Source: Thermoanaerobaculia bacterium (GTDB taxonomy: Bacteria; Acidobacteriota; Thermoanaerobaculia; Multivoradales; Multivoraceae). From it: a stretch of DNA of 64,000 nucleotides. The notes below the pieces were generated by a model. The model was not told where the DNA came from, did no database searches, and worked only from the letters and a program-made list of their open reading frames with translations. Shown here one piece after another: positions 588 to 20,685 of the stretch (positions are counted from its first letter, which is position 1; the number at the start of each line of letters is the position of its first letter). Location of the stretch: contig JAJEHN010000037.1 of NCBI GenBank assembly GCA_022823665.1, positions 23,531 through 87,530 of the forward strand, in the 5' to 3' direction. Both the position numbers and the translations under genes were made by a program.

Positions 588-616
588 TTGACAGTCCGCA
601 CCTTCCGGTGCAGTAT
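588..616 (+). promoter_or_regulatory. Sigma70-type promoter for leader plus aro-his-trp operon
   Basis: TTGACA 588-593, 17-nt spacer, TG-CAGTAT 609-616. Confidence 0.6.
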
Positions 617-661
617 CCGGCGTCCTGGAGCCATTCCGGCCCGTTCCACCCGCACCGTGTC

Positions 662-766
662 ATGAACTCACCGGCCAGCACTTCCGCGTTCGTCGCTGCC
701 TCCGTCGCTCCGGCGACCGGGGTCGTGGCGACGTCCTGGTGGGCTCACGGTCACGGCAAGGGCTGA
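662..766 (+). CDS. Putative attenuator leader peptide, 34 aa MNSPASTSAFVAASVAPATGVVATSWWAHGHGKG
   Basis: Read by hand (below the ORF track cutoff); TGG TGG at 737-742, CAC at 746-748 and 752-754; lies between promoter and first operon gene. Confidence 0.8.
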   Translation: MNSPASTSAFVAASVAPATGVVATSWWAHGHGKG

Positions 767-807
767 ACCCGGGCCAGGTCCCGGTACGCACGGTCCGGGA
801 CGAGGGT
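767..807 (+). promoter_or_regulatory. Leader RNA hairpin (candidate alternative attenuator structure)
   Basis: GTCCCGG 778-784 pairs with CCGGGAC 795-801; ACCC 767-770 can pair with GGGT 804-807. Confidence 0.5.
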
Positions 808-813
808 AAGCAA

Positions 814-845
814 GAAGACCTCCTTCCGGATCGAAGGAGGTCTTC
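814..845 (+). promoter_or_regulatory. Perfect 13-bp hairpin sequestering the SD of aroDE
   Basis: GAAGACCTCCTTC-cggatc-GAAGGAGGTCTTC; 3' arm contains AAGGAGG 834-840, 10 nt before TTG 851; no U-tract. Confidence 0.8.
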
Positions 846-850
846 CCGCT

Positions 851-2440
851 TTGAACCCGACAACTGACGAACCCCGAACCGCCACCCTGGTGGCGTCGCT
901 GACCGAGGCGCCCAGCGCGTCCGGCGACGAGGTGCGCGCGCTCTCCGAGCAGGCGGACTGTCTGGAGGTGCGTGCGGATCTGGTCGGCGATGTCGGCGTC
1001 GAGTGGCTGCGGGAACGCTTCGCGGGCGAGCTCCTCTATACGCTGCGAAGCGAAGCGGAAGGCGGCCGGGGCACGGTCGAGCCGGAGCGGCGGGCGGCGC
1101 TGCTCTCCGCGGCGCAGGGATACGACCTGGTCGACATCGAGGCGGACCGCGATCTCGGCAGGACCGTCCTGGAAGCCGTCGAGCCCCGGCGTCGTGTCGT
1201 GTCGTGGCACGGCCGGGCGCGGAGCCTGAGGGTTCTGCGTGGCCGCCTGAGACAGGTTTCCGGGGTCGAGGCGCGGCTCTGCAAGCTCGTGACCGCCGCG
1301 GAGAACTCCGGCGACGAACTCGTGCCGCTCGAACTGCTGCTCGGCGCGCGTCGGAACGACCTCGCCGCCTTCTCCATGGGCGCTGTCGGCGCCTGGACCC
1401 GGCTGGTTGCGCCGCGTCTCGGCGCGCCGTGGATCTACGGCGCCGCCGGGCCGATGGCCGCCGCGCCCGGCCAACCGTCCATTGAACGGTTGCGGGCGGA
1501 CTACGGTTTACCGAACCTCCGCCGGGCATCGCGGCTCTTCGGCGTCGTCGGCCACCCGGCGGCGCACAGCCTGTCGCCCAGGCTCCACAACGCCGGTTAC
1601 CGCGACCGGGGCGAGGAGGCCCTCTACGTCGCCTTCGATGCGCCGGACTTCGAGGTCTTCTGGCGCGAGGTCGCGCTCTCCGACTTCTTCGACCGGGCGG
1701 GCCTGCCGCTGTGCGGCCTGAGTGTGACCGCGCCGCACAAGGCGGCGGCGCTCGCGGCGGCCTCCGAGGCGGGGGAGCTGGCGCGCGGGACTCAGGGCGC
1801 GAACACCCTGTTGCCGGAAGGTAGTGGCGCCGGAGCCCGGCGCAGGAAGGTCGCCGCTTCGCGGCGCGACTTCTTGGCCGCCTCCGGCGGCAGCGGGTCA
1901 GAAGACCCGCGCACCCGGTGGCGGGCAGAGAGTACGGACCCGGAAGGGGTCGTGGGCCCTTTTCGCCGTCGCGGCATCGATCTGGCGGGCCGCGCGGCCG
2001 TCGTGATCGGCGCCGGCGGGGCGGGGCGAGCCGCCGCCGCCGGTCTCGCTGCTGCCGGCGCCGAGGTGGCGCTCGCCAACCGCACGAGGCCGAGCGGGCG
2101 CGAGGCTGCCGAGTCGCTCGGCGTCGCCTTCGTGCCGCTCGAAGAGCTGGAACCCGGCGAATTCGACGTCGTGGTCAACGCGACGTCTCTCGGTCACCGG
2201 GCCGACGATCCGCTGCCCTGCGACCCGGCGGCGCTTCGGGCCTCGGCTGCCGCGGTCGAGCTGGTCTACGGCGGCGGTCCGACGCCCTGGAGCCGAACGC
2301 TCGCGGCGAGGGGCCTCGTGGTCATCGGCGGCCGGGAGGTGCTCCTGCATCAGGGGCTCTCGCAGTTCGAGGCGATGACCGGGAAGGTCCTGCCCTTCGA
2401 AGTCGGCGCCGCGGCCCTGGGTCTGGGGGCGCAGCCATGA
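851..2440 (+). CDS. aroDE: Bifunctional type I 3-dehydroquinate dehydratase / shikimate dehydrogenase
   Basis: N-half CLEVRAD and VVSWH (AroD); C-half GHPAAHSLSPRLHN, SVTAPHK, GANT, GAGGAGRA (AroE); TTG start inferred from the SD. Confidence 0.9.
   Translation: MNPTTDEPRTATLVASLTEAPSASGDEVRALSEQADCLEVRADLVGDVGVEWLRERFAGELLYTLRSEAEGGRGTVEPERRAALLSAAQGYDLVDIEADRDLGRTVLEAVEPRRRVVSWHGRARSLRVLRGRLRQVSGVEARLCKLVTAAENSGDELVPLELLLGARRNDLAAFSMGAVGAWTRLVAPRLGAPWIYGAAGPMAAAPGQPSIERLRADYGLPNLRRASRLFGVVGHPAAHSLSPRLHNAGYRDRGEEALYVAFDAPDFEVFWREVALSDFFDRAGLPLCGLSVTAPHKAAALAAASEAGELARGTQGANTLLPEGSGAGARRRKVAASRRDFLAASGGSGSEDPRTRWRAESTDPEGVVGPFRRRGIDLAGRAAVVIGAGGAGRAAAAGLAAAGAEVALANRTRPSGREAAESLGVAFVPLEELEPGEFDVVVNATSLGHRADDPLPCDPAALRASAAAVELVYGGGPTPWSRTLAARGLVVIGGREVLLHQGLSQFEAMTGKVLPFEVGAAALGLGAQP
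1821..1920 (-). repeat. Multi-hairpin REP-like cassette in-frame within aroE
   Basis: Hairpins 1827-1843, about 1850-1870 (imperfect), 1877-1891 and 1893-1910; 1877-1920 is 40/44 identical to the reverse complement of 30828-30871. Confidence 0.85.
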
Positions 2441-3441
2441 AGATCTCCGCCGGCCTGCCGACGGGGGTGTCGGCTGCCCTGTTCGACAGCGCGAAGCGGC
2501 GCCGCCGGCTCGAGGCGCGCCTTTCCGCGCTGCTCGAGGAGCGCGGTTTCGCCGAGGTCCTGCTGCCCATTCTCGACTACTTCGAGCCTTACCGGCCGCT
2601 GCTGACCGGTCGGCGGCTGGAGCAGCTCTACCGCTTCGTGGACCGGGACGGTCAACTGCTCGTTCTCCGGGGCGACTTCACGCCGATGCTGGCGCGGCTG
2701 CTCGCGCCGCACCTCGACGAGCTGGAACTGCCGCTGCGCCTCTACTACCGGGGCGATGTCGTGCGTCACCAGCCCTTGCGTCCCGGCCGGATGCGCGAGT
2801 ACTCCCAGTTGGGCGCGGAGCTTCTCGGCGGCGACGAGGCCGAAGCGGACGAGCGGATGTTGACCCTGTTCTTCGACCTGCTGCTCAAGGCGCGCGGCGA
2901 GGCTCCCGTACCCGGCGACGGCGAGGAGCACGCCCTGCGCGTCGTGCTCGGTGTGGCCGGAGCGCTCGACGAGGCCCTGCTGGCCGCTGCCGGCGATCGC
3001 GAAGCCTCCGACCTTGCGCTGCGCATCGCCAGCCGCGACCGGACCGCGGCGCGCCGGGCCGGTCTGGCCGAGGTCGTCGAGCGCGGCTACCCGACGGACC
3101 TCTCGGTACTGGGCGGCTTCGCCGAGGCAGTATCCGATCTCCTGGAGCTTCGCGACCGCCTGGCCGCGGCGTACCGGGGCCTGGGCATCGAGGTCGAGGT
3201 CGACCTCGCCGAGTTCGCCGCCGCCGCTCTCGACCCGCGCATCGGTGTCGGCGAGGGCCCACGCGGCTACTACGACGGCCTGATGTTCGCCGCCTACGCG
3301 CCCGGGACGGCCCTGGCCCTCGGCGTCGGCGGTCGCTACGACAAGGTGTTCCGGTCGCTCAGCGGCGATTGCTCCGCTGTCGGCTTCTCGCTCGGTCTCG
3401 ACCTGCTGCTGGAACTCGGCGCCGCGGAGGCGCTGCCATGA
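2437..3441 (+). CDS. hisZ: ATP phosphoribosyltransferase regulatory subunit
   Basis: LPTGV, YRFVDRDGQLLVLRGDFT, YYDGLMF, GGRYD, AVGFS; ATGA overlap with aroDE. Confidence 0.92.
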   Translation: MKISAGLPTGVSAALFDSAKRRRRLEARLSALLEERGFAEVLLPILDYFEPYRPLLTGRRLEQLYRFVDRDGQLLVLRGDFTPMLARLLAPHLDELELPLRLYYRGDVVRHQPLRPGRMREYSQLGAELLGGDEAEADERMLTLFFDLLLKARGEAPVPGDGEEHALRVVLGVAGALDEALLAAAGDREASDLALRIASRDRTAARRAGLAEVVERGYPTDLSVLGGFAEAVSDLLELRDRLAAAYRGLGIEVEVDLAEFAAAALDPRIGVGEGPRGYYDGLMFAAYAPGTALALGVGGRYDKVFRSLSGDCSAVGFSLGLDLLLELGAAEALP

Positions 3442-4076
3442 TCACCTTCGGCCTGCCCAAGGGGCGGAACCTGGGCCCTGCCCGCGCTTCCCTCGCGGCT
3501 GCGGGACTGAACCTCGACGGCCTCGATTCTTCGCGCCTGCGCCAGCGGTTCCCGGACCAGAACCTGCTGGGAACTCCGGTCGAGGTGCTGCTGCTCAAGG
3601 ACTGGGACCTGCCGCTCTACGTGGAGCACGGGATCGTCGACTGCGCGATCGTCGGCTCGGACGTGCTCGAGGAAACGCAGCCCGATGTCTTCCGGCCGCT
3701 ACAACTGAAAGACGGCCGGAGCCGCCTGTCCCTGATCGCCGAGACTCCGGATCTGCCGAAGCGGAGCGGCCAGCTCCGGGCGGCGACCCGCTACCCGGCC
3801 TGGGCGGCGCGGTTGCTTGCCAAGCGCAACCTCCACGTCGAGGTCATCCACCTGACCAGCTCGATCGAGCTTGGACCGCTGCTCGACCTGACCGATGTCG
3901 CGGTGGACATCGTGCAGACCGGCACGACGCTCCGCACGCACGACCTGCACGAGGTGGAGGTCCTGGCGCGGGTCGCGCCGACCTTCGTCGTCAACCGGGC
4001 GTCGTTTCACGCCCACCGGCGCCGGCTGAGCGGGTTGCTCGGCACACTCGAAGAGACGGAGACGGGCGGTGACTGA
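3438..4076 (+). CDS. hisG: ATP phosphoribosyltransferase, short form
   Basis: LPKGR, DLPLYVEHG, ATRYP, GSIELGP-like SSIELGP, DIVQTGTTL; 212 aa, no C-terminal regulatory domain, consistent with adjacent hisZ. Confidence 0.93.
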   Translation: MITFGLPKGRNLGPARASLAAAGLNLDGLDSSRLRQRFPDQNLLGTPVEVLLLKDWDLPLYVEHGIVDCAIVGSDVLEETQPDVFRPLQLKDGRSRLSLIAETPDLPKRSGQLRAATRYPAWAARLLAKRNLHVEVIHLTSSIELGPLLDLTDVAVDIVQTGTTLRTHDLHEVEVLARVAPTFVVNRASFHAHRRRLSGLLGTLEETETGGD

Positions 4077-5409
4077 GGCCGGCGGCAGTGCCCTTCGAGT
4101 TCTCGCCGCCGGGAGTTCCGCCGGGCGGGAACGTCTGGAACTCCTCGACCGGCGGGGCCGTGGCGGTGTCGCAGCGGAGATCCGCCGGACGGCGGCCGGG
4201 ATCGTGGATCGGGTGCGGGCCGGCGGCGACGCGGCCCTGCTGGAGGCGGTGCGCCGCTTCGACGGCTTCGAGGCGTCCTCGGCCGATGCGTTGCGACTGG
4301 CTCCCGGCCCGGAGCCGGACTCTCCCGCCGTCGACCCCCACGTGGCGGAGGCGATCGAACGCGCCCGGGACGCGATCGATGCGTATCACTCAGCCCTGCT
4401 GCGCGGGCCTGGAGTCGAGCGAGTCGACCGGGACGGCGTCCGGATCGAGGAGCGTCGCATCGCCGTTCGCCGGGTCGGCATCTACGTGCCGGGCGGCCGC
4501 TTCCCCTATCCGTCGACCGTGCTGATGACCGCGGTGCCGGCCCGGCTCGCCGGCGTGGAGGAGATCGTCGTCGCCACGCCGCCCCAGGCGTACCGGGACA
4601 GCCCGGTGCTGCGGCATGTTCTGGACCTGGTCGGCGTGGACGAAGTGTGGGGCATGGGCGGGGCCCACGCGGTCGCGGCGCTCGCCTACGGCACCGAGTC
4701 GATCCGACCCGTCGACCTGATCGCGGGGCCGGGCAACGCCTGGGTCGCGGCGGCCAAGCGGCACGTCGCCTCGGATGTCGGCGTCGACCGGGACGCCGGG
4801 CCGTCCGAGGTCGTCATCGTCGCGTCCGCCGGTGCTCCGGAGGAGTGCGTCGCCGCCGACCTGCTGGCGCAGGCGGAGCACGATCCGCTGGCGGTCGCGG
4901 TCCTCGTCACCGACAGCGGCGATCTGGCCGGTCGCGTCGCTGCGGAAGTCGACCGGCGGCTCGCGGAGCTGCCGACGGCGGAGACGGCGGCGGCAGCGCT
5001 GGAGCAGCACGGCGCGGCCTTCGTCGTCGCCGACCCGGACGAGGCGATCGCACTCGCCGAGCGCATCGCCCCGGAGCACCTGCAGTTGATGGGCGAGGCG
5101 GCCGAGGGACGGGCCGGCGAGTGCCGCAACGCCGGCGCGGTGTTCGTCGGCGCGTCGTCGCCGGTCGTGTTCGGGGACTACGTCGCCGGCCCCAGCCATG
5201 TTCTTCCCACCGGGGGCAGCGCGCGCTTCGCCTCCGGCCTCGGCACGGACGACTTCCTGCGGCGCAGCCACACCGTCCGCTTCTCTGCCGAGGCCGCCGC
5301 GGCCTGGGCTGGTGCCGCCGAGACGCTGGCGACCACGGAAGGCCTGGCGGCCCACGCCGCGGCGGCGAAGCTGCGCCGCGGGTCCGAAGACCGGGAGACC
5401 GTGCCGTGA
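4069..5409 (+). CDS. hisD: Histidinol dehydrogenase
   Basis: GIYVPGG, YPSTVLM, GPGNAWV, AGPSEV, LAQAEHD, APEHL, GDYVAGPSHVLPT. Confidence 0.96.
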   Translation: MTEAGGSALRVLAAGSSAGRERLELLDRRGRGGVAAEIRRTAAGIVDRVRAGGDAALLEAVRRFDGFEASSADALRLAPGPEPDSPAVDPHVAEAIERARDAIDAYHSALLRGPGVERVDRDGVRIEERRIAVRRVGIYVPGGRFPYPSTVLMTAVPARLAGVEEIVVATPPQAYRDSPVLRHVLDLVGVDEVWGMGGAHAVAALAYGTESIRPVDLIAGPGNAWVAAAKRHVASDVGVDRDAGPSEVVIVASAGAPEECVAADLLAQAEHDPLAVAVLVTDSGDLAGRVAAEVDRRLAELPTAETAAAALEQHGAAFVVADPDEAIALAERIAPEHLQLMGEAAEGRAGECRNAGAVFVGASSPVVFGDYVAGPSHVLPTGGSARFASGLGTDDFLRRSHTVRFSAEAAAAWAGAAETLATTEGLAAHAAAAKLRRGSEDRETVP

Positions 5410-6500
5410 GCGGCCGCGCCGAGCGAGCGGCGGCCCTCGTGCGGCCGGAGGTGCGCGAGCTCTCGCTCTACTCGCTGCACAAGGTAGATGCCCGCTTCAA
5501 GCTCGATCAGAACGAGGCGCCCTGGGACCTGCCCCGGTCGCTCAAGCGAGAGGCGCTGGCCCGGTTGGCCGATCTCACCTGGTCGGAGTACCCCGACTTC
5601 CACACCGACCGGCTGCGCCGGCTGATCGCCGAACACCACGACTGGCCGATGGACGGCGTCCTGGTGAGCAACGGTTCCAGCGAACTGCTGACCACCGTGC
5701 TGGAGGCGGTCGTCCGGCCGGGCCAGGAAGTGCTCATCTGCGATCCGAGCTTCAGTCCGTACCGCATGTTCGTGGCCCGTGCCGCCGGCGTGCCGCTCCA
5801 TCTTCCTCCCCTTCCCGGCCTGCGGCTCCAGACGGATGAACTTCTGGCCGAGATCGAACGCGACCCGCGGCGGCCGGCGATCCTCTGTACGCCGAACAAC
5901 CCCACCGGCGCGGCGGCCGATCCCGCGACGGTGGAGCGCGTCGCCGCTTCGCTCGACGCGGCACTCCTGCTGGACAATGCCTATGGCGAGTTCTGCCGCC
6001 ACGACTACCGGCCGCTCGCGCGTGCGAATCCGAACGTCATCCTGTTCCGGACCCTGTCCAAGGCCTGGTCCCTCGGCGGCGTCCGCCTCGGCTACCTGCT
6101 CGCGGCGCCGGAGCTCGTGGCCCAGTTGATCAAGGTCAAGCTGGTCTACAACGTCGGCCACGCGGCGGCCACCATCGGCGAGGTGGTAGTGGAACATGCC
6201 GACCGTTTCCCGCGTCGCGTCGCGGTCGTCAGGGGGCGGCGGGAGCAGTGGGCATCCATGCTCCGGGAGTTCGGTTTCGAGGTCTTCGACTCGGAAGCGA
6301 ACTTCCTGCTCGCTCGCCACCCCCGCTGCAGCGAGATCCGCGACGGTCTGGCGGCGGCCGGCGTGCTGGTCCGGGACGTGAGCCGCTACCCGGGCCTCAG
6401 GAACTGCATGCGGATCGGGATCGGCTCCGGGCCGGCCCTGCGCACGACCCGGCAGGCTCTGGCCGGGATGCTGGCGTCAACCTCTGGAGGCAGGTCATGA
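5406..6500 (+). CDS. hisC: Histidinol-phosphate aminotransferase
   Basis: LDQNEAP, PNNPTG, DNAYGEF, RTLSKAWSLGGVRLGY; GTG start inferred from GTGA overlap. Confidence 0.93.
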   Translation: MSGRAERAAALVRPEVRELSLYSLHKVDARFKLDQNEAPWDLPRSLKREALARLADLTWSEYPDFHTDRLRRLIAEHHDWPMDGVLVSNGSSELLTTVLEAVVRPGQEVLICDPSFSPYRMFVARAAGVPLHLPPLPGLRLQTDELLAEIERDPRRPAILCTPNNPTGAAADPATVERVAASLDAALLLDNAYGEFCRHDYRPLARANPNVILFRTLSKAWSLGGVRLGYLLAAPELVAQLIKVKLVYNVGHAAATIGEVVVEHADRFPRRVAVVRGRREQWASMLREFGFEVFDSEANFLLARHPRCSEIRDGLAAAGVLVRDVSRYPGLRNCMRIGIGSGPALRTTRQALAGMLASTSGGRS

Positions 6501-7096
6501 GAACAGCGTCGATCGAACGGAAGACGTCCGAAACGGAGATTCGCGCCGACCTGTCGCTCGACGGCGGCGAGCGCCGGATCGACACGCCGAACGGTTTCTT
6601 CAGCCACATGCTGGACGCGCTGACCCGCCACGGCGGCCTGGGGCTCGACCTCGTGGCCCGCGGGGACACGGACATCGACCTCCACCACACGGTGGAGGAC
6701 ACCGGGATCGTGCTCGGCGACGCGCTCCGGGAAACGCTCGGCGACCGTGCCGGGGTGCGCCGCTTCGCACACGCCTTCGCGCCGCTCGACGAGGCTCTGG
6801 CCCGCGCCGTGGTCGACCTCTCGGGCCGTGGCTCCTTCCACTTCCGGCTGCCGGCGGAACTGGAGCAGGCGTGGGTGACGACCGAGTTCCCGCTCACTCT
6901 GGTCGGCGACTTCTTCGGCGCCCTGGCCGATCGCGGCCGGTTGACCCTCCACCTGGACGTGCTCTGCGGCCGCAACCCGCACCATGTGGCCGAGGCCGCC
7001 TTCAAGGCGGTGGCCCTTGCCTTGCGGGACGCGGTGTCGCTCCGGGCCGGAGCGGCCGCCGATGTGCCGAGCACGAAGGGGAGCCTTACCGCATGA
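6497..7096 (+). CDS. hisB: Imidazoleglycerol-phosphate dehydratase (monofunctional)
   Basis: RKTSETEI, FFSHML, HHTVEDTG, PLDEAL, NPHHVAEAAFKA. Confidence 0.96.
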   Translation: MRTASIERKTSETEIRADLSLDGGERRIDTPNGFFSHMLDALTRHGGLGLDLVARGDTDIDLHHTVEDTGIVLGDALRETLGDRAGVRRFAHAFAPLDEALARAVVDLSGRGSFHFRLPAELEQAWVTTEFPLTLVGDFFGALADRGRLTLHLDVLCGRNPHHVAEAAFKAVALALRDAVSLRAGAAADVPSTKGSLTA

Positions 7097-7761
7097 ACGG
7101 CGCCGTGACAGCGACCGTGATCGACGCCGGGGTCGGCAACATCGGGAACCTGGTGCGGGCGCTACGGCACCTGGGCGCCGAGGTCGAGATCACCTGCGAC
7201 CCGGCGACGATTCGCGCTTCCCGCTGCCTGGTGCTGCCGGGGGTCGGCGCCTTCCGGCCGCCGCGGGAGGTTCTGCGCGGCGCGCCCGAGGAGGCCATTC
7301 GCTCCGCTGTCGACGCCGGCGCCACCCTGCTCGGCATCTGCATCGGCTACCAGCTCCTGTTCGACAGCAGCGAGGAGTTCGGGACGACGGACGGCCTCGG
7401 CCTGCTCGGCGGGCGGGTCACCGAGCTGCCCGGCGGCGTGCCCTTGCCGCACATCGGCTGGAACCGCGTCTTCGCGGTCGCGGACCACCCGCTGATGGCA
7501 GGCGCGACCAACGACGACCACTACTACTTCGTCCACTCCTTCGCGCCCCAGGACGTGCCGGAGGAGTGGGTGCTCGGGCGCTGCCGGCACGGCCGCAGTT
7601 TCCCGGCGATCACCGGTCGCGGTCGGATCGCCGGCACCCAGTTCCACCCCGAGAAGAGCGGCGCCGCGGGTCTCCGGTTGTTGAGCAACTACCTGGCCTG
7701 GGCCGGCGACCTGGCCGCTGAGGCCGTTGGAGGAGACAGTGCAACTGCTGCCGGCCATTGA
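7093..7761 (+). CDS. hisH: Imidazole glycerol phosphate synthase glutaminase subunit
   Basis: GNIGN, LPGVGAF, GICIG, PHIGWN, YFVHSF, QFHPEKSG. Confidence 0.95.
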   Translation: MNGAVTATVIDAGVGNIGNLVRALRHLGAEVEITCDPATIRASRCLVLPGVGAFRPPREVLRGAPEEAIRSAVDAGATLLGICIGYQLLFDSSEEFGTTDGLGLLGGRVTELPGGVPLPHIGWNRVFAVADHPLMAGATNDDHYYFVHSFAPQDVPEEWVLGRCRHGRSFPAITGRGRIAGTQFHPEKSGAAGLRLLSNYLAWAGDLAAEAVGGDSATAAGH

Positions 7762-8469
7762 TCTGCGAGGCGGCCAGGTCGTGCGCCTCGAGCGCGGCGA
7801 CGACCGGCGGCGCACCGTCTACGATGCCGATCCGTCGGCCGCACTCAGCCGCTACCGCGAGGCCGGAGTCGGCCGCATCCACGTCGTCGACCTGGACGCG
7901 GCGTTCGGCGGCGCGCCGCAGCGCGGCGTCGTCCAGGCACTGGCGCGGCAGGCACGGGACGCGCCGAACGGCGGCATCCAGCTCGGCGGCGGCCTGCGCG
8001 ACCGCGAGGCGGTTGAATGGGCGTTCGCTGCCGGCTGCGAGCGGGCCGTCGTGACCTCGCTCATCGTCCGCGACTTCGACGTCTTCGCCGACCTTTGCCG
8101 CCGGTACCCGGGCCGCATGGTGGCGGCGCTCGACATCGACGGCGGTGAGGTCCGGCTCGCGGGCTGGACCGAGTCGGCCGATCGCTCGCCGGCCGCCCTC
8201 TGCGCCGAACTCGCGGGTCTGCCCGTGGCCGCGATCCTGGTGACCGACATCTCGCGCGACGGGATGATGCAGGGCCCGAACATCGACCTCGCCTGCCGGA
8301 TCGGCGACCTGGCCGGCGCGCCGGCGATCCTCTCGGGCGGTGTGCGCTCGGCGGCGGATCTGGAAGCCGCGGCGCGGCGGCCGGAGATCGAAGCCGCCAT
8401 CGTCGGCCGGGCGCTCTACGACGGTTCGCTCGGCCTGGACGAGGCGATCGCCGCCTGCGGGAGCGCTTC

Positions 8470-8473
<4 letters not shown>
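7739..8473 (+). CDS. hisA: Phosphoribosylformimino-5-aminoimidazole carboxamide ribotide isomerase
   Basis: [37 protein letters not shown]; GTG 7739 preferred over TTG 7727 because GGAGGA lies at 7729-7734. Confidence 0.93.
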
Positions 8474-9275
<802 letters not shown>

Positions 9276-9279
<4 letters not shown>

Positions 9280-9932
9280 CCCAGACAACGACGATCGACC
9301 CGGCCGCCCTCTCCTACGACGACCGGGGCCTGCTGCCCGTCGTCGTCCAGGACGTGCTCTCGGGCGCGGTGCTGATGCTCGCCTACGCCAACCGGGAGGC
9401 GGTGGAGCTGACCCTCTCGACGGGCCAGGCTCACTTCTTCAGCCGTTCGCGCCAGGAGCTCTGGCGCAAGGGCGCGACCTCCGGCAACACCCTCGCGGTC
9501 GTCGAGGTGCTCCAGGACTGCGACCACGACGCCCTGCTGGTGCGGGCGCTGCCGGCCGGGCCGGCCTGCCACCTCTACACGCGGAGCTGCTTCGAGCCGA
9601 ACGTGGCCGAGTTCGAGCTCGGCTGGCTCCGGCGGGTGCTCGCCGAGCGGGCGGAAGCACAGCCGGAGGAGAGCTACACCGCGCGCCTGCTCGAACAGGG
9701 CGTGGACCGCATCGCCCGCAAGGTCGCGGAGGAAGCGGGGGAGACGGTGATTGCCGGCGTCCGCGCGGACGCGGAACCGAAGTCCGCCGAGCGTCGCGGC
9801 GACCTCGCGGCTGAAGCCGCCGACCTCGTCTACCACCTGCTCGTCCTGCTGCAAGCAACCGGCGTCGAACTTGCCGACGTGGCCGCTGAACTGGGCCGCC
9901 GGCACCAGGACTCCGGGAAGTCGCCGTCATGA
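9276..9932 (+). CDS. hisIE: Phosphoribosyl-AMP cyclohydrolase / phosphoribosyl-ATP pyrophosphatase
   Basis: [28 protein letters not shown]; [25 protein letters not shown]. Confidence 0.95.
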
Positions 9933-11418
9933 GCCGCCCCGCCGCCGCGATCGCGCACACGCGCGAGTTCCTGGCCGACACGTCCACGCCGCTCGGCGTC
10001 TACCGCAAGCTGGCGGCCCGCGCGGACGGCGATGCCGCTGGCCGGCGCTTTCTCCTCGAGAGCGTCACCGGCGGCGAGCACGTTTCGCGTTACAGCTTCC
10101 TCGGCGCCGGTCCGTCCCAGGTCTGCCGGGTCTACCTCGACCGGCTCGAGATCGAGGACTGCCGGAACGGCCGTGGCGTACAGGTGGAGACGGGCGACCC
10201 CCTGGTCCGGCTGCGTCGCCTGCTCGACGGCGTGGCCGGCGATCCCGCGCCGCCGCTGCCGTTCGCCGGCGGCTGGATCGGCGCCTTCGGTTTCGACGCG
10301 ATCCGGCTCGCCGAGCCGTGCCTGGTCGACCATGCGGCCGGCCGCCCGCGGGACCCGTTCGGCCTGCCGGTCGCGATTCTCGCGCGCTACGACGAAGTGC
10401 TGGTCTTCGATCATGCCCACCAGCGGATCCTCGCGGTGGCGAACGAGATCGAGGGTGAGAGCACTGCCGCCGACGCGGAGGCTCGTCTCGACGAGCTGCA
10501 GTCCGTACTCGAGAGCCGGGGTGAGGCGATGTCGGCACGGGTCGAGGACCGGGGACTCAAGGCGGAGACGGCCGACCCCACCCTGAGCGACGAGGAGTAC
10601 TTCGGCGTCGTCAACAAGGCCAAGGAGTACATCGCCGCCGGCGACATCTTCCAGGTCGTGCTCGCCCGCCGGTGGGCGCTCGACCTCGACGTGCCGCTGA
10701 CGACGGTCTACCGGGCGTTGCGCCTGGTCAACCCGTCGCCCTACATGGTGCTGTTCGAGGCGCCGGAGGTGTCGCTGATCGGCGCCTCGCCCGAGATGCT
10801 GGTGCGCCGGACGGGTCGGCGGCTCGAGATGCGGCCGATCGCCGGCACGCGGCCTCGCGGCGGGAACCCCGTCGAGGACCGGGCCCTGGCCGAGGAACTG
10901 ATGGCCGATCCGAAGGAGCGCGCCGAGCACGTGATGCTGGTCGATCTCGGCCGCAACGATCTGGGCCGGGTGGCGTCTCCCGGCGCGGTCTCGGTCGAGG
11001 AGTTCATGGTGATCGAGCACTACAGCGATGTGATGCACATCGTCAGCTCGGTCGAGGCGGAGCAGGCGGCGGGCGGCGGCAACGGCGCCGGATCGGCCCT
11101 CGACGCTCTCCTGGCATGCCTCCCGGCCGGCACGCTCTCCGGGGCACCGAAGATCCGCGCGGTGGAGATCATCGACGAGCTCGAGCCGGAGGCACGCGGC
11201 ATGTACGGCGGCTCGGTGGGCTACTTCTCGTTCGGCGGCGACATGGACACCTGCATCACGATCCGCACCCTGGCGCTCGTCAACGGCGAGGCCTCGATCA
11301 CCGCCGGGGGCGGCATCGTCGCCGACTCGGATCCGGTGCGCGAGGCGCAGGAGACCCGCGACAAGGCCGCGGCCCTCCTGAGGGCGGTGGCGCTGGCGCG
11401 CGAGCTCGAGGGCCGGAC

Positions 11419-11422
<4 letters not shown>
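9929..11422 (+). CDS. trpE: Anthranilate synthase component I
   Basis: FLLES, GDIFQVV, NPSPYM, ASPEML, RPIAGT, EHVMLVDLGRND, PAGTLSGAPK. Confidence 0.95.
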
Positions 11423-11989
<567 letters not shown>

Positions 11990-11997
<8 letters not shown>

Positions 11998-13024
11998 TCT
12001 CGACCTTTCCAACCTGCTGAGAACGACGATCGCCGGCGAGGATCTGCCGGCGGCGACGGTGGAGGAGCTGTTCGGCCGCCTGATGGACGGCGAACTCTCG
12101 GAGGTCTGGAAGAGCGCGTTCCTCGTCGCGCTGGCGGCGAAGGGAGAGTCGGTCGGCGAGATCGCCGGCGCCGCCCGGGCGATGCGCGCGCGTGCGGCGC
12201 GCGTCGAGCACGGGAGTTCCGGCGTGATCGACACCTGCGGCACCGGCGGCGACGGTCGGGGCACGTTCAACATCTCGACCGCGGCCGCGCTGGTCGCGGC
12301 GGCGGGCGGCGCCCGCGTCGCCAAGCACGGCAACCGCGCGGTCTCGAGCCGGTCCGGCTCGGCCGATGTGCTGGCCGCGCTGGGCGTGAGGCTCTCCGGC
12401 TACACGGAGGCGCTGGGGCGCTGCCTGGACGAGGTCGGCATCGTGTTCCTCTTCGCGCCGATGCTGCATCCTGCGATGGCCCAGGTCATGCCGGTGCGGC
12501 AGGAACTCGGCGTGCGCACCCTCTTCAACGTGCTGGGGCCCCTGACCAACCCCGCGGGCGCGAAACGGCAGTTGATCGGCGTCTTCTCGGCCGATCTCGT
12601 CGAGCCGATCGCGCGGGTCCTGCTCGAGCTCGGCAGCGAGCACGCGCTGGTCGTTCACGGCGACGGCCTGGACGAGATGACGACCACGGGCGCGACGGCG
12701 GTTGCCGAAGTCCGGGACGGCGAGGTCAAGACGTACGAGGTCCGGCCGGGCGACTTCGGCATCGCCGCGGCGTCGCCCGAGGACCTGCTCGGCGGCGACC
12801 CGGAGCGGAACGTCGAGCTGATGCGCGGCGTGCTCGACGGCGGGAAGGGGGCGCTGGCCGACATCACCTGCCTGAATTCCGGGGCGGCGCTCTACGTGGC
12901 GGGCAGGGCCGACAGTCTCGCGGCCGGCGTCGCCGCGGCGTCGGAGGTCCAGGCTTCCGGCGCGGCCGCCGCGAAGCTCGCTGAGCTCGTCAACTGGACC
13001 GGCTGGGACGACGGAGGGGAGTGA
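11990..13024 (+). CDS. trpD: Anthranilate phosphoribosyltransferase
   Basis: DTCGTGGDG, NIST, KHGNRAVSSRSGSAD, RTLFNVLGPL, DGLDE. Confidence 0.96.
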
Positions 13025-13872
13025 GGCCGGCGGTCGTGTCCGAAGTACCCGACATCCTGCGGCGCATCTGCGAGCAGCGGCGCCGGCGCGTGGTTGCCGG
13101 CGACGCGGGCGTATCCCCGGCGGGGCGTCTGCCCGCCGAGGCCCCGGGCGGTCGCTTCCTCGACGCGATCTCCGCGCGCCGCGGCCGGGCCGTGATCGCC
13201 GAGATCAAGATGGGTTCGCCCAAGCTGGGCGACCTGCGCGGCCGTTTCGATCCGGTCGCGCGCGCCGCGACCTACGCCGATGCCGGGGCGGCCTGCCTGT
13301 CCGTCGTGGTCGAGCCGGACCACTTCCACGGAAGCTACGAACTGCTGGCCGGGTGCGCGGCCGCGTCCGGGCTGCCGGCGGTGGCGAAGGACTTCGTCGT
13401 CTCCGACGTGCAGCTCGCGTGGGCGCGGGACGCGGGCGCCTCCGCCGTGCTGCTGATCGCGGCCCTCCACGACGCGGCTGAACTGCGCCGTCTGGCAGGG
13501 GTCGCCCGCGGCCTCGGGCTCGTGCCGCTGATCGAGACCCACGACGACGCGGACTTCGAGAAACTCCGTCCGCTGGCGCCGGACGACGGCGACGGGAAGA
13601 ACTCCAGTTGGGAACTGGTGGGCATCAACAACCGCGACCTGCGCACGTTCGAGGTCGACCTGGAACGCAGCGCCGGCCGCGTCGGCTGCCTGCCGTCGTC
13701 GGCCCTCAAGGTCGCCGAGTCGGGCATCCACACCGGCGCCGACGTCGCGAAACTGCGCCAAGCCGGTTTCGACGCTTTCCTGATCGGCGAACGCCTCGTG
13801 CTCTCCGGCGACCCCGCGGCGGCACTCGCTGAACTACTGGGTGCGCCGGCGCCCCACGAGGTGACCTCGTGA
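13021..13872 (+). CDS. trpC: Indole-3-glycerol phosphate synthase
   Basis: AEIK.GSP, KDF, GINNRDL, AESGI, LIGE. Confidence 0.93.
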   Translation: MRPAVVSEVPDILRRICEQRRRRVVAGDAGVSPAGRLPAEAPGGRFLDAISARRGRAVIAEIKMGSPKLGDLRGRFDPVARAATYADAGAACLSVVVEPDHFHGSYELLAGCAAASGLPAVAKDFVVSDVQLAWARDAGASAVLLIAALHDAAELRRLAGVARGLGLVPLIETHDDADFEKLRPLAPDDGDGKNSSWELVGINNRDLRTFEVDLERSAGRVGCLPSSALKVAESGIHTGADVAKLRQAGFDAFLIGERLVLSGDPAAALAELLGAPAPHEVTS

Positions 13873-14510
13873 AGGTCAAGATCTGCGGCGTCACGACACC
13901 CGCCGACGCCCGCCTCGCCGTCGACCTGGGCGCCGACTTCATCGGCCTCAACTTCTACCGTCCGAGCCCGCGCTGGATCGACGTCGACGAGGCGGCCCAC
14001 ATCCGCCGCCGGATCGGGAACCGGGCCCGGGCCGTCGGCATCTTCGTCGACCCCACGCGCGAAGAACTCGAGACGATCGACCGCAAGGTCGGCCTCGACT
14101 ACATTCAGTTCAGCGGCGACGAGAGCCCGGAACTCGTTGCCGAGTACAGCGTCCGCGCCATCCGTGTCCGCCGTGTTGGCGGCGCGGCGGCCCCGGCCCC
14201 GGTCCTTGAGGAGGATTGCTGGGCGGTCCTGATCGACCGCGCCCACGATCGCCTCTACGGCGGCTCCGGCGAGAGCTGGGACTACGCCGCCGCGGCCGAC
14301 CTCGTCCGAACGCCGGCCGGCGACGGCGGGCCGCGACGCCTGTTCATCGCAGGCGGCGTGCGCCCCGGCAACGTTGCCGAAGTGGCGTCGGCGGTGCCTG
14401 GCGCCTACGCCGTCGACACCTGTTCGGGCGTCGAGTCCGCGCCCGGCCGGAAGGATCGCACCAAGCTGGAGCGACTGTTCGCCAACCTCAGAGCGGGAGC
14501 AGCACGATGA
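13869..14510 (+). CDS. trpF: Phosphoribosylanthranilate isomerase
   Basis: [36 protein letters not shown]. Confidence 0.93.
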
Positions 14511-15733
14511 AGGTACGAACACCCCTCGCCGCCGCGGCGCTGGAGCCGGACGAGGGCGGACGCTACGGCGTCTACGGCGGGCGCTACGCCCCGGAGACGC
14601 TGATGGCGCCGCTCGAGGAGTTGAGCCGCGCCTACGACAAGCTGCGCCGGAAGCGGACCTTCCAGCGCCGGCTCAACCACCTGCTGGAGCACTACGTCGG
14701 CCGCCCGACGCCGCTCTACTTCGCGGAACGGCTCACCGAGCACCTCGGCGGCGCCCGCATCTACCTGAAGCGCGAGGATCTGCTCCACACCGGCGCGCAC
14801 AAGATCAACAACGCCCTGGGCCAGGTCCTGCTGGCGAAGGAGATGGGCAAGACGCGGATCATCGCCGAGACCGGCGCCGGACAGCACGGCGTCGCCACCG
14901 CGACGGCGGCGGCGCTCCTCGGTCTCGACTGCGTCGTCTACATGGGTGAGGAAGACATGCGGCGCCAGCGCCTGAACGTCTATCGCATGCAGCTTCTCGG
15001 CGCCGAAGTGGCTGCGGTCGACGCCGGCAGCCGGACGCTCAAGGACGCGATCAACGAGGCGTTCCGCGACTGGGTGGCGAGCTTCGCCGACACCCACTAC
15101 GTGCTCGGCACGGTGACCGGGCCCGAGCCGTATCCGCGGATGGTCCGCCAGTTCCACAGCGTGATCGGGTCGGAGGCCCGGCGTCAGTTGCGGCGCCTCG
15201 CCGGCACGCCGGACCCCGACGTGGCGGTTGCCTGCGTCGGCGGCGGCAGCAACGCGATGGGTCTGTTCTCCGCCTTCCTCGACCGGCCGGACGTGCTGCT
15301 CGTCGGCGTCGAGGCCGGCGGCCGGGGACCCGAGCTGGGGGATCACGCGGCCCGCTTCTCGGGCGGCACGCTCGGCGTTCTTCACGGCGCGCGGACGCTG
15401 GTGCTCCAGGACGAGGAGGGTCAGGTCGTCGGCACCCACTCCGTGTCGGCCGGGCTCGACTACCCGGCGGTCGGTCCCGAGCATGTCTTCCTGCACGATG
15501 AGGGGCAGATCGAGTTCACCTCGGCGACCGACCAGGAGGCGATCGAGGGGTTTCACCTCCTGTCGGCGACCGAGGGCATCCTGCCGGCACTCGAGTCCGC
15601 GCACGCGATCGCCGAGGTGACACGCCGTGCGCCGGGGATGGACGGCGATCAGGTCATTCTCGTCAACCTGTCGGGCCGCGGCGACAAGGACGTCGAGTCC
15701 GTACTCGAGTACGACGCCGGAGACGCCGAATGA
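14507..15733 (+). CDS. trpB: Tryptophan synthase beta chain
   Basis: [56 protein letters not shown]. Confidence 0.97.
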
Positions 15734-16557
15734 GCCCCCGCCGCAAGCGCCGCTCCAACGGCGCCATCGCCGCCGCCTTCAAGACCTGCGCGAAGGAACG
15801 CCGGTCGGCCTTCATCCCCTTCCTCGTCGCCGGCGATCCGTCCCTCGAGGCCACGCCCGACCTGCTGCGCGCTCTCGTCGCCGGCGGCGCCGACGTGATC
15901 GAGCTCGGCGTCGCCTTCAGCGACCCGATCGCCGACGGGCCGACGATCCAGCGCGCCTCGCATCGCGCGCTCGCCGCCGGCTCCTCGCTCAGCGCCGTGC
16001 TCGGCATCGTCGAACGCCACCGGGAGGAACTCGGCGTCCCGATCGTCCTCTTCACCTACTACAACCCGGTCCACGCCCGAGGCGTCGAGAACTTCGCCGC
16101 CCAGGCCGCCGCTAGCGGCGTCGACGGCGTCCTCTGCGTCGACCTGCCGCCCGACGAGGGCCTGCGCGAGCTGCAGCCGGCGCTCGAGGAGCGGGGCGTC
16201 GACTCGATCTACCTGATCGCCGCTACCAGTACCCGCGAGCGCATCGACCGCGCCGCCGCCGCGTCGAACGGCTTTGTCTACTACACCGCCCGCTCGGACG
16301 TCACGGGCGAGCGGGAAGACCTGATTCCCACTCTGGCCCGCGAAGTGAAGCGGGTGCGCCGCCGGGTGCGCCTGCCGGTCGCCGTCGGCTTCGGCATCTC
16401 GACTCCCGAGCAGGTCGAGGAAGTGGCCCAGGTCGCCCACGGCGTCGTCGTCGGCAGCTCCCTGGTGCGCCTGGTCGAGGAGAACGCAGCCGAAGCGGAC
16501 CTGGCCGCGCGCCTGGAGCGCCGCGTCACCGAGCTGACCGCGCCGCTGCGCCGGTAG
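15730..16557 (+). CDS. trpA: Tryptophan synthase alpha chain
   Basis: [44 protein letters not shown]. Confidence 0.96.
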
Positions 16558-18963: not shown

Positions 18964-20685
18964 CTACCGCGACGGCACCCTCGCCCCGTCGCGGACCAGT
19001 GACATCTCGCTGGTCGTCTCGTCCCGGACGCCGACGACGACCTGGTAGTCGCCCTCGGCCAGGCTGACCGACACCTCGAAGCGGAAGGCGCCATCGGTGG
19101 CCTGGACGTCACCGGCGGGTCCCACCGGCACCGTCATCTGGCGCACGGACGTTCGGCCGCGTTTCTCCTCGTCGACCGCGAGCAGCAGAAGGCGGAGCCG
19201 GCCGCCTGGTCCGCCGGCGCCGGGCACCAGCAGGACGGCCTCCTCGGGTACGACGATGCTGACCGGTTGCCGGTGCACCTTCTTCTCCCGCGGGGTCGTC
19301 GCGCCCAGGTCGACCGCGACGCCGAGCGGATTCGGGGTGCTGCCGAGGTAGGCCGCGGAGATCAGCCGCTCCGCGAGTTGCTCATCCTGGGTCTTGTCGC
19401 GGTAGGACCGGCGGTACTCCACGCTGCGGCCCTGAGCGGCGTGGGGTGCGAGTTCGACCTTCAGGCGGCGTACTTCGCCCGACCGCCGCTCGTCCGGGGA
19501 AAAGCCCAGGGAATAGGTGGAGACGAGCTGCTCCGTCACGTCCTCGAGCAGGTCGGCCAGGTCGTTCGAGTTGAGGAGAGCCTTGCCGCCGGTCTCGGAC
19601 GCGAGCTGTTGGAGGCCGCCCTGGATGTTCGTCCAGTGCAGCCGGTCGTTCTGGTACGACGGCGCAACGCCATCGAACGACATCGACTGGCTGAGCCCGG
19701 TGCGAATGCCGCCCGCGTCCAGCGTGAAGAGAGTGACCCGGTTCGCGTTGGCGTGCGCCGTGAGCTGCTGGAAACGGCGGGTTTCGTCGTGCCGCTGGGC
19801 CGCCGCGTTCGTCTCGGGGACGATGCGCGGGTCGTTCGGGCAGAGAACCTGGGCGATGTAGTCGAAAGCCGAGAGCCCGGGCTGCTGCGGCAGTCCGTCG
19901 CTCATGTACACGATCGCCTTCCGCCCGGGGATTCCGGCCAGGGTACTGGTCAGGTCGGCGAGCCCGTCGGCAGCGATCGCGGCGCGATTCGCCTGCTCGA
20001 CCGCGTACGTGTCGGCCAGCGCCATGAGTTGGCCGGTGTTCTGACAGCCCCGGCTGTTCACGTTGATCTCCTCCAGAGTGAACTGCCGGGAACGCTGGTT
20101 CCGGACGGCGCGGGCCAGCCCCTTGGGGCGTTTGGACGCGGCCTTGAGGATCGCGTCGAGGTCCCGGGTCGGCGGCACGACGACTTCCAGCCGGTTGACG
20201 AAACGCGCGTACATGAAGCGCGCGTTCAGGGTACGCCACGACTCGACCGCCTTCTCCAGACGCCGGAGCAGCCGCGAGCGGTAGGGCGGGAAGAGGTTCG
20301 CGTCGTCCATGTACAGGACGACGGTGAGCGAGGCGGGGTCGGCCGCGGCCTCGGCCTGGGCAGGCTCGGCCCCGGCAGCCGGCGGGGCAGCCCGGTCGGC
20401 TGGCTCGGCCGGCTGCCCGAGAAGCTCCGACTCGAAGAAGTTCGTGATCTCGACCGGCTCGCCGTCCACCGAGAGCTCGAAGTCGTCGCGGGTCAGTCCC
20501 CGGACGGGACGGCCGTTCCGGTCCGTGACCACGACGTCGACTTCGACGACCTGCACGTCGAGGGTGTCGATGAAGGTCTGGTCGGGCTGCGCCTGAACCG
20601 CGGCGGCGCCGGAAAGCACGAGCAGCGTTGCCGCCGCCGCAGGTGGAAGATGGCTCGTCAAGCGCTTGAGTGCGTTCTGCTGCAA
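18964..20685 (-). CDS. Acidobacteria-type VWA domain protein (copy 2)
   Basis: Signal peptide; F.DT.DVQVVEVDVVVTDR.G.PV.GL, KAIVYMSDG, LASETGGKA; TTG start with GGAGG 7 nt upstream. Confidence 0.85.
   Translation of the reverse strand: MQQNALKRLTSHLPPAAAATLLVLSGAAAVQAQPDQTFIDTLDVQVVEVDVVVTDRNGRPVRGLTRDDFELSVDGEPVEITNFFESELLGQPAEPADRAAPPAAGAEPAQAEAAADPASLTVVLYMDDANLFPPYRSRLLRRLEKAVESWRTLNARFMYARFVNRLEVVVPPTRDLDAILKAASKRPKGLARAVRNQRSRQFTLEEINVNSRGCQNTGQLMALADTYAVEQANRAAIAADGLADLTSTLAGIPGRKAIVYMSDGLPQQPGLSAFDYIAQVLCPNDPRIVPETNAAAQRHDETRRFQQLTAHANANRVTLFTLDAGGIRTGLSQSMSFDGVAPSYQNDRLHWTNIQGGLQQLASETGGKALLNSNDLADLLEDVTEQLVSTYSLGFSPDERRSGEVRRLKVELAPHAAQGRSVEYRRSYRDKTQDEQLAERLISAAYLGSTPNPLGVAVDLGATTPREKKVHRQPVSIVVPEEAVLLVPGAGGPGGRLRLLLLAVDEEKRGRTSVRQMTVPVGPAGDVQATDGAFRFEVSVSLAEGDYQVVVGVRDETTSEMSLVRDGARVPSR

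Follow-up and report, generated by a model that had tools for sequence, protein, structure and literature searches.

Upstream of a merged aro-his-trp operon in a Thermoanaerobaculia bacterium lies what is probably a leader-peptide attenuator of the ribosome-mediated kind that has Trp and His as its two inputs and in which a five-segment RNA chain would control the whole operon. The element stands near the start of a 64,000-nucleotide (nt) stretch of contig JAJEHN010000037.1, here called the window, whose positions supply all coordinates (Table 1). We observe its parts, their conservation in relatives, both pairing registers of the RNA, the spacing between codons and segments, and a correlation of leader codons with operon content. 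An original prediction made from the letters of this DNA had named promoter hexamers, a 34-codon open reading frame (ORF), its Trp and His codons, two hairpins and a Shine-Dalgarno (SD) sequence in a 3' hairpin arm, and a base-for-base check found all of them where it had placed them. Its central proposal, a single leader with Trp and His control codons for a merged his and trp operon, is borne out by comparison as far as sequences can tell, through a conserved tail and the loss of His codons where his genes are missing. The operon itself is one uninterrupted same-strand array in which gene ends abut or overlap, and it holds a complete his pathway with hisZ and a complete trp pathway. A short ORF 5' of it ends in S-W-W-A-H-G-H-G-K-G, so that tandem Trp and His-x-His codons precede an operon that makes both amino acids. 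These codons are confined to the final nine codon positions, and the last His codon lies 12 nt 5' of the stop. Trp accounts for 0.78% and His for 2.12% of residues in the operon proteins, so a nine-residue tail with two of each is very unlikely to be a chance product; the feature also returns in dozens of independent lineages.

How is the leader distributed among relatives? With AroDE, encoded by the first gene, as query, species-representative genomes gave 32 loci at 74-93% identity from metagenome-assembled genomes of Candidatus Multivorans and other Thermoanaerobaculia (Acidobacteriota). A distant set at 39-68% identity comprised three more homologues (L038-L040; loci are cited by L numbers) and 80 metagenome loci from a scan with an AroDE alignment. 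The leader ORF lies at the same place in about 29 of the 32 close loci; the N-terminal two-thirds diverge (e.g. MNSQASDSAITMPTV..., MNTPPRDLAISTLSV...), and about 28 Multivorans-lineage genomes share the tail ..WWAHGHGKG with hardly a change. L038 and L039, at 67-68% AroDE identity, end in ..AWWAHGHGRD and ..AWWTHGHGKD, and L040, at 53% and with the aroDE-his-trp order of the window, in ..GWRGMAHHHVS. Among the metagenome loci, 32 of 80 have a homologous leader, an ATG-initiated ORF ending 60-150 nt 5' of aroDE, with a Trp cluster, then a His cluster and typically three further codons after it (..GWWGWYGHTHHHVC, ..LWGWWPAHAHQHSVS, ..TWWPVHHHSAG, ..AWRSHHHHSVS, ..GWWGHAHHHAVS). The ORF, its position and the order of Trp before His persist over AroDE identities of 93% to about 47% as the remaining peptide diverges; across the family nothing of the peptide is maintained except the Trp/His-rich tail and the position of the stop. 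The promoter is kept as well. Its -35 hexamer is invariant and its -10 hexamer conserved (CAGTAT or TCTAAT) across 31 related loci, and in the wider family a TTGACA-N17/18-TGTAAT or GGTAAGCT promoter occupies the same place 5' of the leader, leaving a short 5' untranslated region. A consensus scan of the window did not call the promoter, whose -10 hexamer has only 3/6 matches.

Such conservation raises the question of whether the peptide itself is the effector, either as an arrest peptide that senses a free amino acid, like TnaC, or as a small functional protein. Speaking for this are the nearly invariant WWAHGHGKG of the Multivorans lineage and the S-V-S-type ends (also A-V-S or S-V-D) that precede the stop in many leaders of soil and sediment relatives. 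We nevertheless hold it to be very improbable, because the bases are equally invariant in the Multivorans lineage and because N-terminal parts diverge and the wider family keeps Trp/His content and stop spacing with no motif in common. Indeed, the Multivorans lineage shows hardly any base variation over the roughly 110 nt that run from TGGTGG to the SD hairpin, Gly third positions included, so that constraint on the peptide and constraint on the RNA are inseparable within that lineage.

The strongest argument for a sensor of both amino acids comes from operons that differ in gene content. Mapping the 17 proteins of the window onto all loci gave three architectures: class A, aroDE followed by his and then trp genes; class B, aroDE followed directly by trpEGDCFBA without his genes (L057, L062, L065, L073/L086, L091, L119, L121); and class C, a clade at about 40% identity in which neither his nor trp genes follow aroDE and no such leader is present. 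We counted L048 in class B; between aroDE and trpE it has an insert whose ORFs gave no NCBIfam match. The gene order of the window recurs in L040, L042, L044, L052, L061, L069, L072 and L088 and is kept to about 50% AroDE identity. In the 26 distinct class A leaders Trp makes up 13.7% and His 23.1% of the final 14 residues, with at least two His in 26/26, whereas the remainder of these peptides has 0% and 2.5%; in the eight distinct class B leaders the same stretch is 13.4% Trp and 5.4% His, and one of eight has at least two His. At least one Trp is present in 25/26 his+ and 8/8 trp-only leaders. Codons for two amino acids thus share one leader, and when the his genes are absent His goes and Trp stays.

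Because class B loci are interspersed with their class A neighbours, this change must have occurred several times, and sister pairs illustrate it. At 83% AroDE identity and with the same RNA, L040 reads GWRGMAHHHVS and L048 GWRGLIQNRMS; L075 reads CWWGYAHHHV and L065 CWWSYAQPYV; and in a set that we counted once, L069/L071/L110 end in the ..HHHSVS type and L073/L086/L119 in AWGWCAPHRSVS or AWGWCAHHRSVS. Each residue that replaces His (Q, N, R, P, Y) is a single-base change away from a His codon. L119 has retained HH despite its his-less operon. Where His is present, leaders use CAT and CAC at 64:45 (59% CAT; tails of 44 loci, e.g. L067:2439-2471 and L060:1184-1216), whereas the operon genes of these high-GC loci use them at 343:1336 (20% CAT; odds ratio 5.5, p = 6e-17); the window's lineage has CAC rather than CAT. 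As both codons serve at His positions, the constraint falls on codon meaning and not on the bases. Taken together, the comparison strongly supports that loss of leader His codons tracks the absence of his genes and that Trp codons remain. An attenuator that senses Trp or His alone, the other residue being incidental or a relic, would suit the his+ leaders with one Trp codon (L040, L052, L060, L061, L069), L046, which has none, and the HH of L119. It is improbable in light of the joint conservation of both residues in 25/26 his+ tails, where they are enriched 10- to 17-fold, and of the pattern that selection on each input would give: Trp in all trp-only operons, His lost in at least three independent sister pairs.

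Operons with his and without trp genes, in which loss of Trp codons would be expected, were not found; every long-enough locus has trpE after hisIE. In the L046 leader (9140-9228; ..LRGRVRVAVHHHPVI) HHH is kept, and Arg (CGG) takes the place of the Trp seen in its relatives L047 and L051 (..LWGWWPVHAHHH). The L046 contig stops at hisA; if the trp genes had left that operon, it would be the reciprocal natural experiment.

What, then, would the codons act upon? Between the leader stop and aroDE lie five segments, R1 to R5, and an alignment of the 3' parts of 39 leaders was scored for pairing cell by cell, with the same helices slid by one column as controls. Two mutually exclusive registers emerge. 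In the one that we call OFF (R2:R3 with R4:R5), 92.1% of cells are paired, compared with 57-63% in the slid controls, and seven pairs show changes on both sides: for R2:R3, 100% of cells across the 39 sequences are paired and two pairs are compensated, and for R4:R5, 88% and five. RNAalifold independently predicts this structure. In the ON register (R1:R2 with R3:R4), 95.8% of cells are paired, compared with 66-69% in the controls. R1:R2 contributes 93% with three pairs changed on both sides, as in L057 (GCCGAAGC/GCUUCGGC, with R3 changed to CCGGAGC) and L121 (GGCCGGAGC/GCUCCGGCC). R3, as expected of a competitor, is a near-copy of R5, which reads CCGGAAGGAGG in relatives. The helices are thus alternatives, one of them a terminator or SD sequestor, and they are positioned for a choice by the ribosome. 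Conserved Trp and His codons and stem covariation had been named with the original prediction as things to look for by aligning relatives, and the covariation seen here lies in R2:R3, R4:R5 and R1:R2. The two alternative helices that it had drawn did not hold up: for CCTGG 735-739 with CCAGG 774-778 and AGGTC 776-780 with GACCT 817-821 the proportion of paired cells is 57%, a level that slid or shuffled controls also reach. An R1:R3 helix (CCCGGGCC 768-775 with GGTCCGGG 792-799) was set aside as R1 covaries with R2 in L057 and L121.

Region 620-870 folds better than its shuffles (z = -4.9; 0/200 fold as well). The conserved 110 nt could also be seen as a structured RNA that binds a metabolite, protein or tRNA (a riboswitch, a T-box or a protein-mediated attenuator), with an untranslated ORF and the codons as a by-product. 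The near-invariance from TGGTGG to the SD hairpin in the Multivorans lineage, down to the Gly third positions, and a leader ATG without an SD are what such an RNA would show. Against it stand several observations. Rfam has no family matching the 64 kb window at gathering scores and returned only chance microRNA hits for 500-950 at E up to 10; with no match to the His_leader, Trp_leader, T-box or riboswitch models, known leader, T-box and riboswitch families were rejected for this element. The Trp/His region varies in sequence, number, spacing and choice of CAT or CAC as the frame, the ATG and the distance from stop to R1 are kept; the Trp and His codons lie outside the five paired segments; and the His codons track operon gene content. 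We consider a structured RNA of this kind very unlikely, and, with the single-input sensor and the arrest peptide, it appears disfavoured by the sequence comparisons.

A two-input attenuator would work as follows, in keeping with general descriptions of leader-peptide attenuation (PMC1183508, PMC9413887). That the leader is translated, that ribosomes stall on it, in which order the segments fold and what regulation results are inferred here. Transcription would start at the conserved promoter, and the 34-codon leader would be translated while the polymerase transcribes the 85 nt from its stop to aroDE. With Trp-tRNA and His-tRNA plentiful, the ribosome would reach the stop and cover R1; R2 would then pair with R3 and R4 with R5, burying the SD, and in most relatives the R4:R5 hairpin would also act as an intrinsic terminator whose U-tract holds the TTG start. 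If the ribosome instead stalls at the Trp or His codons, its front edge would remain short of R1, which could pair with R2 once R2 is made; free R3 would capture R4, and R5 would emerge unpaired with the SD, so that the 17-gene operon is transcribed and/or aroDE translated. Either starvation would suffice, an OR gate.

Table 1. Position of the element's features in the window, with predicted helix energies
Feature	Position	Strand	Content	Remarks
Promoter	588..616	+	-35 TTGACA 588-593, 17-nt spacer, -10 CAGTAT 611-616	read from sequence
Leader ORF, unannotated	662..766	+	ATG 662, TGA 764-766; 34 codons and stop; encodes MNSPASTSAFVAASVAPATGVVATSWWAHGHGKG, then stop
Hairpin within leader ORF	686..734	+		fold of 662-745: -41.2 kcal/mol, z = -2.1
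Tandem Trp control codons	737..742	+	TGG TGG, codons 26-27	sole Trp codons of leader ORF
His control codons	746..754	+	CAC GGT CAC, codons 29 and 31 (746-748, 752-754)	sole His codons of leader ORF
R1	769..773	+	CCGGG, consensus GCCGGG	starts 2 nt after stop; pairs with R2 (ON)
R2	778..784	+	GUCCCGG	pairs with R3 (OFF) or R1 (ON)
R3	795..805	+	CCGGGACGAGG, consensus CCGGGACGAG nearly invariant	3' arm of hairpin A (OFF), or anti-terminator/anti-sequestor strand with R4 (ON)
R4	814..829	+	5' arm of SD hairpin 814-826 and loop CGG	819-829 (consensus CCUCCUUCCGG) pairs with R3 (ON)
R5	833..845	+	3' arm of 13-bp hairpin, consensus CCGGAAGGAGG	SD AAGGAGG 834-840
R1:R2 helix	769-773 / 780-784	+		ON; -8.4 kcal/mol
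R2:R3 helix, 7-bp hairpin A	778-784 / 795-801	+	GTCCCGG / CCGGGAC	OFF; -16.0 kcal/mol; read from sequence
R3:R4 helix	795-805 / 819-829	+		ON; -17.4 kcal/mol
R4:R5 helix, perfect 13-bp SD hairpin	814-826 / 833-845	+	GAAGACCTCCTTC / GAAGGAGGTCTTC	OFF; -23.2 kcal/mol; AAGGAGG at 834-840 in 3' arm
aroDE start codon	851..853	+	TTG	10 nt 3' of SD; within terminator U-tract in relatives
Regulated operon, 17 genes	851..16557	+	aroD-aroE fusion, hisZ, hisG, hisD, hisC, hisB, hisH, hisA, hisF, hisIE, trpE, trpG, trpD, trpC, trpF, trpB, trpA	ORFs and NCBIfam

The geometry agrees with such a choice. Counted from the stop, the last control codon starts exactly 12 nt upstream in 27/39 sequences and the R1 core 0-4 nt downstream in 37/39; R2 starts 11-16 nt after the first base of the stop in most. 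From this spacing, a ribosome at the last His codon reaches about to the stop and leaves R1 free, and a ribosome at the stop covers R1 and not R2. We also folded truncated transcripts of the 39 sequences, containing only the RNA present before R5 is made, with the ribosome masked. With a stalled ribosome, R1:R2 forms in 27-29/39 and R3:R4 in 27-29/39; with the ribosome at the stop, R1:R2 is almost absent (0-1/39), and R2:R3 forms in every sequence (39/39) as soon as R3 is complete.

Several points weigh against this interpretation. The original prediction had stalling at either control site open the SD; when the footprint of a ribosome on W26, W27, H29, H31 or the stop was masked in equilibrium folding, the SD hairpin always formed, which agrees with state energies in the window of -24.0 kcal/mol for ON and -36.8 kcal/mol for OFF. 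A thermodynamic switch was therefore rejected, and since the SD stays closed at equilibrium any switch must be kinetic, acting during transcription and dependent on folding order. Even then, with the ribosome at the stop and the transcript cut just before R5, the minimum free energy structure gives R3:R4 in 12-16/39, so that the outcome is sensitive to the assumed footprint and the model rests on the first-formed helices persisting. R3:R4, paired in about 97% of cells versus 66-69% when slid, is backed by conservation and shows no double-sided change, and as all segments consist of CCGG, CCCGG and CCGGG words, other registers such as R1:R3 (768-775/792-799) can also be drawn. No SD is recognisable upstream of the leader ATG, in the window or in relatives, and a few aroDE-his or aroDE-trp loci (L045, L053, L056, L063, L103) have no leader. 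Among his+ leaders there are those with a single Trp codon and the one with none, named above, and the Fisher test of at least two His in 26/26 versus 1/8 leaders gives p = 1.5e-6, a value not corrected for phylogeny. Finally, the window has a longer stem (13 bp) and a degenerate U-run, and a scan called no terminator there.

This last point bears on the level of control. Most relatives have TTTTCGTTTTG after the SD hairpin, and this hairpin was called terminator-like in L052, L060 and L069, where a GC-rich hairpin and a U-tract make up an intrinsic terminator; the window lacks this combination, and CCCGCTTTG stands directly 3' of the 13-bp hairpin, before the TTG. As the U-tract is missing, the level of control in the window's lineage is uncertain. 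The translational attenuation without U-tract put forward in the original prediction fits that lineage and fails for most relatives. Given their canonical terminator, the ancestral device would have been a transcription terminator that also sequestered the SD, from which the window's lineage is, by this comparison, one that has lost the U-tract; its copy fits the SD-sequestering sub-type of attenuator. Could the same leader-peptide sensor then act, in the Ca. Multivorans-like lineage, only on translation initiation of aroDE, without termination, and reach the downstream genes by coupling or mRNA stability? We consider this a real possibility, if on balance a doubtful one. The 13-bp stem, the CCCGCTTTG in place of a U-run, the uncalled terminator and an AAGGAGG wholly within the 3' arm all speak for it, overlapping or abutting genes permit coupling, and SD-sequestering variants are described in the literature (PMC9413887, PMC1262725). 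On the other hand, the hairpin is the most stable in every equilibrium fold, such that a purely translational switch would close again if no ribosome had loaded while transcription was under way, and the homologous hairpin is a canonical terminator in most relatives.

Returning to the two-input attenuator as a family trait, the start codon deserves attention. Nearly the whole family starts aroDE with TTG (851-853 in the window; homologous positions in L043-L121). In most lineages R5 is followed by UUUUCGUUUUG, which contains this codon, and the TTG forms the last three bases of the terminator U-tract (GGAGGTTTTCGTTTTG), a placement that may explain why a rare start is conserved. We tentatively suggest, at somewhat less than even confidence, that the family shares an apparently undescribed two-input attenuator in which one hairpin would act as intrinsic terminator, sequester the SD and bear the TTG start in its U-tract. 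Starvation for either amino acid would gate transcription and translation of 17 genes, His codons would be shed quickly once the his genes leave, and the window's lineage would have been converted to a purely translational switch.

Further observations concern individual loci and neighbouring sequence. Of the exceptions in the close set, L022 has no leader, and L007 and L030 look like leader deletions: in L007 (5870-6000) the promoter spacer is joined straight to GCTCACGGTCAC, the -10 hexamer and most of the leader ORF being gone, and in L030 (5900-6000) the upstream gene is joined to GAGGGTGAGCG, with promoter, leader and R1-R3 gone and the SD hairpin kept. They may represent genuine regulatory loss or assembly artefacts. 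In L040 (9770-9815) and L048 (1905-1945) the leader ATG lies only about 9 nt past a -10-like hexamer, and the leader mRNA of this sub-lineage may be leaderless or nearly so. In L088 (9880-10000) and L114 (9930-10000) an insertion of 60-90 nt separates the arms of R4 and R5 in place of a 3-6 nt loop. The hairpin within the leader ORF is possibly an RNA polymerase pause hairpin specific to the window's lineage, of uncertain role; a family-wide pause hairpin at this place was rejected, with a median z of -0.34 and 2/33 below -2 in the wider family. Further copies of CCGGGACGAG at 17174, 19018 and 56261 are within chance expectation in number. In many genomes of the Multivorans lineage, one to four copies of a palindromic unit of about 30 nt (..GGAGGTCGC..GAGCGCGAC..) lie within the first 20 or so aroDE codons and lengthen the AroDE protein (L011:5890-6040, L017, L003:6004-6060, L018, L020, L021); the window copy has none, and the unit may be an element of repetitive extragenic palindromic (REP) type inserted in frame. 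Downstream in the window, two adjacent paralogous ORFs of 573 and 585 amino acids lie on the minus strand (18964-20685 and 20710-22467), with a common N-terminal signal-like segment and the motif ..VDVQVVEVDV.VTDR.GRPV.GL.R.DFEL.VDG.PV.ITNF.ES..

Full-text searching of the literature found no description of a Trp+His leader and no account of such a merged aro-his-trp operon in Acidobacteriota. The his-less relatives supply a natural control in which His codons are lost and the Trp codons and RNA switch are kept, a dated series of intermediates. A regulatory annotation would be gained for a large, mostly uncultured Thermoanaerobaculia clade, Candidatus Multivorans included, in which the small ORF is unannotated. 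The element would also represent a compact natural two-input RNA sensor, and its combined terminator, SD sequestor and start-codon hairpin would exemplify one structure that serves both levels of control, one of which can be lost.

How does this arrangement compare with known systems? Leader-peptide attenuation is textbook knowledge, but nearly every characterised example, to our knowledge, responds to a single amino acid or a single branched pathway, and these examples are from Proteobacteria, Actinobacteria and a small number of Firmicutes. In the classical model of hisL, which has seven His codons, A:B, C:D and E:F pairing opposes B:C and D:E, and the last hairpin is the terminator. Shared with hisL of Salmonella and E. 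coli are a His run near the end of a short ORF, a chain of more than four segments set by ribosome position, and a last hairpin acting as terminator. Here, in contrast, sequence and structure are not homologous (no match to the Rfam His_leader model), Trp codons are present too, His runs number 2-4 rather than 7, the SD of the first gene makes up the 3' arm of the terminator, in whose U-tract the start codon lies, and the operon also comprises trp genes and aroDE. In trp leaders, the terminator forms preferentially when the ribosome has reached the stop, and the anti-terminator when it has stalled (PMC1183508; PMC1262725 for Actinobacteria). Like trpL of E. coli and the trp leaders of Corynebacterium and Streptomyces, our leader has tandem or close Trp codons a few codons before the stop; unlike trpL, it has no Rfam Trp_leader match, five segments instead of four, a second amino-acid input and, in the window's lineage, no U-tract.

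Multivalent attenuation has precedents. The ilvGMEDA and ilvBN leaders carry Ile, Leu and Val control codons, and the thr operon leader reportedly carries Thr and Ile codons (Lynn et al. 1987 J Mol Biol 194:59, cited in PMC7041290). As in these leaders, control codons for more than one amino acid are present and limitation of any would relieve attenuation; unlike them, where one branched pathway is served, the element would integrate two unrelated end products of separate pathways, because the genes of these are fused into one operon. SD-sequestering attenuators and T-boxes (PMC9413887; PMC1262725 for actinobacterial ileS T-boxes) likewise have the SD of the first gene within the regulated hairpin. 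Here that hairpin is also a canonical terminator in most members, and only the window's lineage resembles a pure sequestor. Among supraoperons, the aromatic one of Bacillus subtilis, aroFBH-trpEDCFBA-hisC-tyrA-aroE, is controlled by TRAP. It resembles the operon described here in uniting aro, trp and his gene(s) in one transcription unit and differs from it in having hisC only and TRAP control, as opposed to a whole his pathway and a leader peptide; supraoperons are discussed in PMC1173090. The principle of our element is familiar from these systems; new are the combination of inputs, the clade, the triple duty of the hairpin and the natural experiment on leader evolution.

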